Sequence record: OR844578
DNA from: Escherichia phage ECO26.1 3-1
Strand: one strand, 5' to 3'
DNA: 51,807 nt
In this document: positions 40,984 through 42,599 of the stretch, in pieces
Layout: every line of letters begins with the position of its first letter
Numbering within the stretch: the stretch's first letter is position 1
The notes under the pieces: model-generated
Database searches by the model: none
Told to the model about the DNA's origin: nothing
Seen by the model: the letters and a program-made list of their open reading frames with translations, nothing else
Program-made: the position numbers and the translations under genes

Positions 40984-41700
40984 ATGGGAAAACATAACAC
41001 AATGAAATATATCAAAGCCGCAGATTTTCAAGCCGCATTTAAAGCAGTCAATCGTGAAATTTTAGAAAACCCCGAATTCGTAACTGATTCTCGTATTGGA
41101 CGTTGTAATGAAATTGGGTCCATGACAGTAGTTGTTGACAATCCGTCATCATTCAAAATGACCGACCCACGTATTAACCGCATCTCTTATGAATATGCCG
41201 AAGACTTCTGGAAGTTTATGATTTCTGGTGGTACTGATGCAGAAGAAGCGTTTAAGGCATATCCTAATGTCGCTAAATTTATTTCTAAACCTAAATCAGA
41301 CGCTTTGCCTGCAAACTTCAACACTTTCTACGGTCCTCGCATTGCGGCCCAATTACCAGCTCTTCTAAAAGAACTTAAAGAGAAACCTAACTCTCGAAGA
41401 GTTGTGTTCCAAATTCTAGAAAGTTCTGATCAGGCTTTGCTTGATTCGGACGAAACGCTTGAATATCCATGTACTGACTCAGTGACTTATTATATTCGTG
41501 ATGGTAAGCTTTATACTCACTGTCATATGCGTTCCCAGAACTGTGCTGTTGTTATGCAGTTGGATTTTTATCTCCAAGGAAAATTACTTCATTATATCGC
41601 TAACGAATGCGGTGTAGAAGTTGGTGATTATACTCATACCATGGTAAGTGCCCATGTGTTTGAACGTGATTTTGATTATGTTAAAGGATTCCTTGACTAA
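40984..41700 (+). CDS. 42: dCMP hydroxymethylase (thymidylate synthase family)
   Basis: TS-family motifs PNSRR, PCTDSVTYY (catalytic Cys), HMRSQN, EVGDYTH; Asp in QLDFY at the position that is Asn in thymidylate synthase and Asp in T4 gp42; SD GAGGT. Confidence 0.75.
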   Translation: MGKHNTMKYIKAADFQAAFKAVNREILENPEFVTDSRIGRCNEIGSMTVVVDNPSSFKMTDPRINRISYEYAEDFWKFMISGGTDAEEAFKAYPNVAKFISKPKSDALPANFNTFYGPRIAAQLPALLKELKEKPNSRRVVFQILESSDQALLDSDETLEYPCTDSVTYYIRDGKLYTHCHMRSQNCAVVMQLDFYLQGKLLHYIANECGVEVGDYTHTMVSAHVFERDFDYVKGFLD

Positions 41701-42599
41701 TGGCTATTTTCCGCGTACCAATCTTGAGTATGCGGTCTTATGAAACTGGACAGTATGCTATCCTTAAGGATGGCAACTTCCAACTTCATTTGCACCGTGC
41801 TAATCCAGGTGATGTGATTACATATCCACGTAATGCATCTGATATTAAAGAATGTGAACGTCTTTTCCCGGAATTTAAGTTTGTTCCGTTATGGTATAAA
41901 GATAACGCGTATAACACTCGTAAATATTTCTGGTCTGAAAATGAATTTGTGGTTGATTCATTAATTGCTTATTATGATTGTGATTTTCTAATAACAGATA
42001 TCACTGGATATGACGGCGCTTTTGATGTAGAATTCAATTTCAATATCACGGCAGACCCTAATAAACCACGTTTTTATATTGACGAATTCTTAAAAACCGA
42101 TATGTTGTCAGTTAATCGTTCACTTCAAACTACTGTGTTGAATGAACGTCAAAAAGAAGTGCTGGTTAACGCCGGTGCAGATGGTAATAAGATTATCGTA
42201 ACCAAGAAAGTTATACGTCCTTCCATCATGCAGCGTCTTGTAGGTGATTTGGCTCCTATTCATCTAGATGGTATTTTTCATCCATTTCGAATTAGTGACC
42301 CATGCTATCGTTTTGAACAAGTGGTTGAATGTGCAATTCAATTAGGTCAACCGCTTTATATAACCGATCCAAATAATAGTTTCGATAGAAATAAGTATCC
42401 TGAAGAAGCGCTGATTCGAATTTTTAAACCAACTAAAACTGAGTACTATCAAATTCTTAAAGGACGACCGAAGATTCAATATTTCGAAAATCCTGAAGAA
42501 GTATTCCATCCAGGTCTTGGCGAGTTCATCTACTTTAACGCTTTAATTTCTTCGCCGTATAATATACCTAAATACGAAGATGTCGTAATCGAGGAATAA
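41700..42599 (+). CDS. hypothetical protein in the beta-glucosyltransferase position; candidate DNA sugar transferase
   Basis: 299 aa; sits between gene 42 and uvsX where T4 has beta-gt; no family recognised by eye. Confidence 0.45.
   Translation: MAIFRVPILSMRSYETGQYAILKDGNFQLHLHRANPGDVITYPRNASDIKECERLFPEFKFVPLWYKDNAYNTRKYFWSENEFVVDSLIAYYDCDFLITDITGYDGAFDVEFNFNITADPNKPRFYIDEFLKTDMLSVNRSLQTTVLNERQKEVLVNAGADGNKIIVTKKVIRPSIMQRLVGDLAPIHLDGIFHPFRISDPCYRFEQVVECAIQLGQPLYITDPNNSFDRNKYPEEALIRIFKPTKTEYYQILKGRPKIQYFENPEEVFHPGLGEFIYFNALISSPYNIPKYEDVVIEE

Follow-up and report, generated by a model that had tools for sequence, protein, structure and literature searches.

A GT-B-fold protein family as candidate for the first arabinosyltransferase of 5-hydroxycytosine in RB69-like phages

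Which enzyme attaches the first sugar to the modified cytosine of RB69-like phages? In T4, whose record gives the order 43 - imm.1 - imm - 42 - b-gt - segA - uvsX, the gene next to gene 42 encodes the beta-glucosyltransferase (beta-gt). The window analysed here, a stretch of 51,807 nucleotides from Escherichia phage ECO26.1 3-1 (sequence record OR844578), is Mosigvirus, RB69-like, and in place of beta-gt it holds the gene of a 299-aa protein. An earlier note had placed this protein in the beta-gt slot, between the gene-42 homolog and uvsX, and proposed it as a novel transferase moving a pentose to hydroxymethylcytosine (hmC) in DNA, possibly with a new fold. The T4 gene order bears out the slot, which here also accommodates a 182-aa kinase. 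Our analysis suggests that the protein is a glycosyltransferase (GT) of the GT-B fold putting the first arabinose on 5-hydroxycytosine, a reading to which a probability of about 0.55 can be given. The three genes on which the argument turns are the following.

40984..41700, + strand: ThyA-superfamily 5-hydroxy-deoxycytidine monophosphate (5-hydroxy-dCMP) synthase, RB69 gp48 ortholog; Pfam Thymidylat_synt
41700..42599, + strand: 299-aa GT-B-fold glycosyltransferase, putative first, base-proximal arabinofuranosyltransferase for 5-hydroxycytosine; PHROG 3891, ortholog of RB69 gp46:47, DLP3 gp79 and Thanatos TH1_063
42601..43149, + strand: 182-aa thymidylate-kinase-like P-loop kinase, RB69 gp45 ortholog; PHROG 761 'thymidylate kinase'

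Arabinosylated cytosine shields widespread T4-like phages, many of them phage-therapy candidates, against restriction enzymes, DNA glycosylases and some CRISPR-Cas systems, and the enzyme of the first sugar is therefore the key step of the modification. A role of the 299-aa protein as first arabinosyltransferase has already been proposed in papers of 2025-2026: Lee et al. (NAR 2026; PMC13326640) named RB69 gp46:47 'arabinosyltransferase 1' and list the same matches in fold, and it is also mentioned in this role in PMC13390438 (the Durham phage paper, Mosigvirus NP). The novelty once claimed for the protein is thus lost, and no new entity is added here. Our data contribute the size of the family, its shared presence across clusters and a near-constant linkage to the kinase, with gene fusions; the remaining interest lies in the biochemistry of the first glycosylation step.

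The transferase, its fold and its base-modifying neighbour

The 299-aa open reading frame (ORF; ATG start, positions 41700-42599 of the + strand) is real, as the earlier note had held, and a chance ORF was rejected, since full-length homologs (23-99% identity) were found in 348 phage records, 138 protein clusters and 58 IMG/VR loci. The records are from phages of Escherichia, Shigella, Acinetobacter, Klebsiella, Serratia, Enterobacter, Proteus, Yersinia, Providencia and Shewanella. The protein matches PHROG 3891 ('unknown function') over residues 1-298 (E 1.9e-155) and is 99% identical to RB69 ORF047c+ORF046c, 59.7% to the homolog of Serratia phage LC53, 47.5% to Thanatos TH1_063 and 45.6% to DLP3 gp79 (over 100% of its length). 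At the nucleotide level, 153 phage records match the gene with 95-99% identity, and phage moskry shares a 21.8-kb stretch with the window at 98.4% identity. The RB69 reference (NC_004928 / AY303349; locus L016, about position 845) carries one extra T between positions 42243 and 42244 of the window (GTAGTGTGA in the RB69 reference vs GTAGGTGA), by which the gene is split into ORF047c and ORF046c; the ORF is intact in the window and in about 150 other Mosigvirus records. This split of the reading frame explains why the gene was long left as 'hypothetical'. Apart from being an intact single ORF, the window copy differs in nothing of substance from RB69 gp46:47, DLP3 gp79 and TH1_063, with which it shares family, position, predicted fold and the structural neighbours 3c4q and 6kih.

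The junctions on both sides of the gene are close. The TAA stop of the ThyA homolog shares a base with the transferase ATG (TAATG, 41698-41702), and an AAGGA at 41684-41688 lies 11 nt 5' of this ATG. At the other end, a single base separates the TAA stop of the transferase (42597-42599) from the kinase ATG at 42601, which is preceded by a GAGGA within the last codons of the transferase gene. The three genes are packed so tightly that they probably form one translationally coupled unit. A scan for promoters and terminators returned sites no more numerous than in shuffled sequence.

The absence of resemblance to T4 beta-gt and of obvious motifs, remarked upon in the earlier note, holds at the sequence level. 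The transferase gave no Pfam match at E<=0.1, Glycos_transf_1 and Glyco_trans_4 included, and no NCBIfam match; comparison of the family profile with T4 beta-gt by hhalign yielded a probability of 0.1% (E 0.52), and that with RB69 ORF003c, another phage glycosyltransferase, 0.4%. A search of PDB sequences with the same profile brought up nothing relevant and no structure for the PHROG 3891 family. Among 1.84 billion representative proteins the profile found 229 relatives only and never reached GT4 proteins.

Structure prediction gave a clearer picture. With 40 diverse homologs as input, AlphaFold2 gave a confident model (predicted local distance difference test, pLDDT, 94.5; predicted template modelling score, pTM, 0.89) that displayed two Rossmann-like beta/alpha/beta domains separated by an interdomain cleft, the arrangement that defines GT-B. 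In Foldseek searches, GT4 transferases were matched with template modelling (TM) scores of 0.57-0.60, the best E-values went to non-hydrolysing UDP-N-acetylglucosamine (UDP-GlcNAc) 2-epimerases (7vza, E 6e-7; TM 0.48-0.51), and all structural neighbours, including 3c4q and 6kih, were of the GT-B fold. As both groups agree with GT-B, the fold is not new: the new fold that had been envisaged was rejected because a confident model matches GT-B structures, and a GT-A fold was discarded because the model and its neighbours are GT-B. According to the model, the transferase is a divergent, compact branch of this very common fold. No clear homology to a non-transferase family emerged from the searches described above.

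Retaining enzymes of family GT4 (sucrose-phosphate synthase 6kih, BshA 6n1x, MshA 3c4q, PimA 2gej) share the two-Rossmann architecture, and 240-270 residues can be superposed on them at 3.0-3.5 A. The transferase is unlike them in its low identity (about 10%), in being 50-100 residues shorter and in its presumed acceptor, a modified DNA base or nucleotide instead of a sugar, lipid or thiol precursor. Comparison of 181 family members, of which 127 are less than 35% identical to the window protein, revealed a small set of near-invariant residues (S10, R12, Y19, D24, G25, N26, P43, Y66, R74, Q151, P195, F196, R197, D200, Y203, T222, P224, N225, H270, E275). R197, D200, H270 and E275 are kept in 93-98% of these members; in the model, the former two follow the strand 192-194 and the latter two stand at the start of the helix 271-278. 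Judged solely by their place in the sequence and in the secondary structure, R197, H270 and E275 would lie where GT-B enzymes bind the nucleoside diphosphate (NDP) sugar. The site may resemble that of GT4 enzymes, a conserved Arg following the first strand of the C-terminal domain and a helix beginning with an acidic residue.

The upstream neighbour bears on the nature of the acceptor. The ThyA homolog of the window has N186 at the position of E. coli ThyA D169 and D194 at that of N177, T4 gp42 having D at both; in the alignment with E. coli ThyA and T4 gp42, Asn at the D169 position was also seen in Thanatos TH1_062 and Rhizobium phage P10VF_177. Lee et al. (PMC13326640) take D169N as the signature of 5-hydroxy-dCMP synthases and showed that RB69 gp48 makes 5-hydroxy-dCMP with oxygen from O2, and the window protein is near-identical to PDB entries 9iqc/9ir2/9iqu (E 2.4e-161). 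The identification of this gene as a dCMP hydroxymethylase was thus rejected, the signature being absent from T4 gp42, and with it fell the hmC acceptor of the earlier note. RB69 DNA carries beta-D-Araf-(1-3)-alpha-D-Araf ether-linked to 5-hydroxycytosine (PMC13326640; Araf, arabinofuranose). Signature, gp48 activity and RB69 DNA chemistry together point to the 5-OH of 5-hydroxycytosine as the acceptor oxygen. It is worth noting that in many GenBank records the 40984-41700 gene is annotated 'dCMP hydroxymethylase' or 'thymidylate synthase'.

The T4 counterpart in the slot offers an instructive comparison. T4 beta-gt likewise follows a ThyA-family gene, adopts the GT-B fold and places a sugar on a C5-oxygenated cytosine; it differs in having no sequence relationship to the transferase, a basic isoelectric point (pI) of 9.05, UDP-glucose as donor and hydroxymethylcytosine as acceptor, where the window enzyme would presumably use UDP-arabinofuranose (UDP-Araf) and 5-hydroxycytosine.

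Distribution and the case for a first-sugar enzyme

The transferase gene stands directly downstream of the 5-hydroxy-dCMP synthase gene inside an arabinose-pathway cluster; this adjacency to the ThyA homolog was found in about 45 of the 58 independent IMG/VR loci and also in Thanatos and LC53. The GT family shared by every record with the cluster is PHROG 3891, other genomes not having been searched for further transferases. The GT-B fold, the coupling to the base-modifying gene and this shared presence in the cluster phages make the protein the foremost candidate for the pentose transfer, as the earlier note had proposed.

The other transferase to be considered, RB69 ORF003c and its HY126 ortholog (9iqz, 9ir0), is unrelated in sequence to the 299-aa protein, has 366 aa and is encoded about 22 kb away, outside the window; it has been proposed to add the second, beta-linked arabinose (PMC13326640). 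When its homologs were sought by tblastn at E<=1e-5, they were found in 212 records, solely from Mosigvirus-type Escherichia/Shigella phages and Acinetobacter phages, the latter with two copies. In LC53 and Thanatos, the transferase gene was present and no ORF003c homolog was detected at this threshold. The DNA of both phages is reported to be arabinosylated; that of Thanatos, which encodes only the transferase treated here, is mono-arabinosylated (PMC13326640). The same authors proposed RB69 gp46:47 and DLP3 gp79 as the initial transferase and described the base-proximal arabinose as alpha-linked.

A distant homolog, Rhizobium phage P10VF_178 (hhalign 99%, E 2e-18, about 25% identity), shares with the transferase the SMRSYETG, FPxRxxD and TDPN motifs, as well as the order of ThyA homolog, GT and P-loop genes. 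RL38J1 gp215, in the same slot, has been named 'galactosyltransferase 1', and the 5-hydroxycytosine of that phage carries galactose, then glucose (PMC13326640). The PHROG 3891 family thus looks like a general enzyme of the first sugar on 5-hydroxycytosine, with a donor specificity varying by lineage.

The sugar-nucleotide pathway that the earlier note had seen nearby is indeed present, in the form of an isomerase, a nucleotidyltransferase/kinase and a phosphatase.

36599..37234, + strand: SIS-domain arabinose-5-phosphate isomerase, RB69 gp55 ortholog, first donor-sugar step; Pfam SIS, PHROG 5670, role proposed in PMC13326640
37416..39101, + strand: bifunctional sugar-1-phosphate nucleotidyltransferase (N-terminal, GAGLATRL) and kinase (C-terminal); Pfam NTP_transferase, weak APH-type kinase matches, NCBIfam nucleotidyltransferase
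39086..39487, + strand: HAD-like phosphatase, ortholog of RB69 gp51 and HY126 AfhF, 5-phosphate removal from arabinose-1,5-bisphosphate; PHROG 1238, role cited in PMC13326640

The 37416..39101 protein is the ortholog of RB69 gp52:53 and of HY126 AfhE, and by orthology it makes UDP-arabinofuranose. This product was obtained with HY126 AfhE and AfhF by He et al., and AfhE combines kinase and UDP-arabinose pyrophosphorylase in one protein, both as cited in PMC13326640.

From these elements a course of the modification can be outlined. The ThyA homolog would convert dCMP to 5-hydroxy-dCMP, as demonstrated for its RB69 ortholog, and isomerase, kinase/pyrophosphorylase and phosphatase would provide UDP-D-arabinofuranose, by orthology to the HY126 enzymes as relayed by Lee et al. 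The UDP-sugar would be bound by the C-terminal Rossmann domain, with putative contacts of R197 to the diphosphate and of H270 and E275, at the helix N-terminus, to the ribose and the sugar. The N-terminal domain (S10, R12, Y19, D24, N26, R74) may hold the 5-hydroxycytosine, and transfer of arabinofuranose to the 5-OH would give the alpha-linked, base-proximal product. The similarity to retaining GT4 enzymes would fit such an alpha product from an alpha-linked UDP-sugar. By the precedent of the T-even glucosyltransferases, the acceptor would be 5-hydroxycytosine already in replicated DNA. The second arabinose would then be added by the homolog of RB69 ORF003c, encoded outside the window.

Kinase linkage and competing explanations

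The kinase, which contains a DRGYISNWVYG motif, follows the transferase directly in about 40 of the 58 IMG/VR loci, and most of the others have it at another place in the cluster; in some groups of Klebsiella, Proteus and Escherichia phages it is found a few genes upstream. The pairing extends to distant lineages, in which transferase and kinase are 23-38% and 28-30% identical, respectively, to the window proteins. Additionally, fusions of the two occur in both orders and in at least eight protein clusters defined at 50% identity, GT-kinase in seven (P0216, P0229, P0230, P0240, P0245, P0253, P0259) and kinase-GT in P0235. A second class of fusions joins an N-terminal HAD phosphatase domain (DFDGIF...GDD, KdsC-like) to the transferase domain (clusters P0139, P0149, P0151, P0152, P0166, P0169, P0198 and P0218; e.g. 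locus L011, 733-2343). A hidden Markov model of the window-type HAD phosphatase (39086-39487) gave no match to this domain, which is of a different HAD subtype.

Several observations weigh against the transferase as the enzyme of the first arabinose on DNA. Transferase activity has been demonstrated for no member of the family in the literature surveyed, outside of which He et al. 2026 and Mahler et al. 2025 may assign the roles differently. DLP3 gp79 alone did not arabinosylate 5-hydroxycytosine DNA with either UDP-Araf or UDP-arabinopyranose (UDP-Arap), and Lee et al. cannot tell mononucleotide from DNA as acceptor of the first sugar (PMC13326640). With TH1_063, plain cytosine substrates were not glycosylated and formation of UDP-xylose was reported instead (PMC12838424). 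The solved HY126 glycosyltransferase (9iqz), the sole one of HY126 in the PDB, is the ortholog of ORF003c. Donor-binding residues were assigned in the way described above and not by superposition. Finally, the family is acidic, with a pI of 4.7-6 and a negative net charge in 38 of 40 members, vs a pI of 9.05 for T4 beta-gt.

Some of these points would be accounted for if the acceptor were the free nucleotide, 5-hydroxy-dCMP being arabinosylated before replication and phosphorylated by the thymidylate-kinase-like enzyme, the polymerase incorporating arabinosyl-dCTP and later sugars being added on DNA. The adjacency of the kinase in about 40 of the 58 loci and the fusions in both orders speak for such a route, as do the inactivity of DLP3 gp79 on 5-hydroxycytosine DNA and the acceptor level left open by its authors. 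RB69 gp159, a T4-type deoxynucleoside monophosphate kinase, phosphorylates 5-hydroxy-dCMP (PMC13326640); this substrate being already covered, the 182-aa kinase needs another job. The family is also acidic, with few invariant basic residues in the acceptor domain, and masking 5-hydroxycytosine before incorporation would be advantageous. 5-Hydroxycytosine in DNA is mutagenic and a substrate of base-excision repair. However, the phage DNA glycosylations characterised so far are all post-replicative, and gp48 and gp159 alone put 5-hydroxy-dC into E. coli DNA (PMC13326640), so that unglycosylated 5-hydroxy-dCTP must be a usable substrate. A position next to the ThyA homolog does not discriminate either, because the DNA-acting T4 beta-gt occupies the same place beside gene 42. 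Fusions also join non-consecutive steps (AfhE, HAD-GT) and therefore prove a shared pathway only, and charge does not discriminate between DNA and nucleotide as acceptor, since the DNA-acting T4 alpha-gt is net negative too. Post-replicative precedent, incorporation of 5-hydroxy-dC, the beta-gt slot and the non-consecutive fusions make a nucleotide acceptor rather unlikely in our view, yet deserving of serious attention. If true, no earlier case of a DNA base glycosylated before replication would be known, and the kinase linkage with its fusions makes the question of DNA vs nucleotide directly testable.

The remaining explanations change the reaction instead of the acceptor. That the transferase adds the second sugar or needs a partner, the first arabinose being attached by the ORF003c-type enzyme, appears improbable. 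ORF003c was indeed proposed as arabinosyltransferase by Thomas et al. 2018, without discussion of the 299-aa gene, the study that solved the HY126 ortholog is titled for 'arabinofuranosylation', and dependence on a partner does exist, DLP3 gp76 and gp77 being active only together (PMC13326640). ORF003c homologs were, however, not found at the tblastn threshold given above in phages of Serratia, Klebsiella, Enterobacter, Proteus, Yersinia and Shewanella in which the transferase and the arabinose pathway occur; arabinosylated DNA is reported for LC53 and Thanatos, and the tri-arabinose Acinetobacter phages have two ORF003c copies besides the transferase, which fits one primary enzyme with extenders. 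The UDP-xylose result suggests yet another activity, that of a UDP-pentose pyrophosphorylase forming UDP-pentose from UTP and pentose-1-phosphate: a UDP-xylose peak was seen by liquid chromatography-tandem mass spectrometry (LC-MS/MS) when His-tagged TH1_063, orthologous to the 299-aa protein by sequence and position (locus L001, 5995-6897), was incubated with UTP, xylose-1-phosphate and pyrophosphatase (PMC12838424). This activity is very unlikely for the transferase, because its fold is GT-B and not that of nucleotidyltransferases and because a genuine nucleotidyltransferase is already in the cluster (37416-39101); moreover, no GxGxR motif was found in its N-terminus (MAIFRVPILSMRSYETG) and no NTP_transferase Pfam match was obtained. 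In that assay the protein came from E. coli and the sugar was a surrogate, and host contamination was not excluded in the text consulted. The name 'UDP-xylose pyrophosphorylase' given to TH1_063 in PMC12838424 is at odds with its GT-B fold and with the presence of TH1_060, the genuine nucleotidyltransferase of the Thanatos cluster, for which no activity was found in the same paper. A swap or a contaminating host activity seems possible. Equally hard to accept is a GT-B enzyme acting on the nucleotide sugar itself, e.g. an epimerase of the UDP-GlcNAc 2-epimerase type, to which the top Foldseek E-values (7vza) belong; the TM scores of 0.48-0.51 to epimerases are below the 0.57-0.60 to GT4 transferases, the proposed route to UDP-arabinofuranose needs no epimerase, and phages with only this GT-B protein would be left without a transferase.

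Other cluster members and divergent loci

Two further ORFs lie between the donor-sugar genes and the ThyA homolog.

39545..40705, + strand: Peptidase-U32-family protein, RB69 gp50 ortholog, member of the cluster; Pfam Peptidase_U32 (E 7e-11), weak UbiU match, conserved in clusters
40702..40941, + strand: 79-aa ORF between the U32 gene and the ThyA homolog; PHROG 8601

Lee et al. list RB69 gp50 as a 'sugar or heterocycle reductase' and make no mention of U32, prephenate or chorismate (PMC13326640). Its U32 relatives RlhA, TrhP and UbiU/V are O2-independent, prephenate-dependent hydroxylases, with 5-hydroxycytosine in rRNA and 5-hydroxyuridine in tRNA among the products (PMC5727448, PMC6599085, PMC10990095). 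In Serratia phage LC53 (locus L002, 4796-6306), a chorismate mutase gene (Pfam CM_2, E 1.7e-11) directly follows the U32 gene and would supply prephenate; the 79-aa ORF of the window, in the same slot, showed no similarity to this enzyme. Additionally, several viral loci (L012, L014, L065, L066, L067, L070) display the order kinase-GT-U32 and no ThyA homolog within 6 kb. Kinship with the hydroxylases, the chorismate mutase of LC53 and the loci without a ThyA homolog make an anaerobic route conceivable, and the U32 protein may be such a route to 5-hydroxycytosine.

The hmC-type Serratia phage SP1 (locus L009, 3950-4876; also Serratia phage Muldoon A0A5P8PH66) encodes a homolog that covers the whole transferase (hhalign 99.3%, Foldseek TM 0.73); its neighbours are two glucosyltransferase genes and the gene of a true dCMP hydroxymethylase. 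In this homolog the invariant motifs SMRS, KDGN, FPFRISD, TDPN and HPG are all lost, and it is either a decayed copy or a protein with a new function.

In distant metagenomic phages, a gene of the Flavodoxin_2 family (flavin reductase-like) occurs beside or near the trio of ThyA homolog, GT and kinase (L004, 6715-7275; L003, 1-523), in keeping with the reported dependence of the hydroxylase on flavin. A metagenomic branch of homologs (340-381 aa, 37-40% identity; L044-L057, L003, L004) is marked by a C-terminal extension of ~50 residues. In the loci of this branch that were fetched, the ThyA homolog and the kinase were present and no SIS, NTP-transferase or HAD genes were found within 6 kb. 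Such phages may draw on a host nucleotide sugar, and so on a different sugar.

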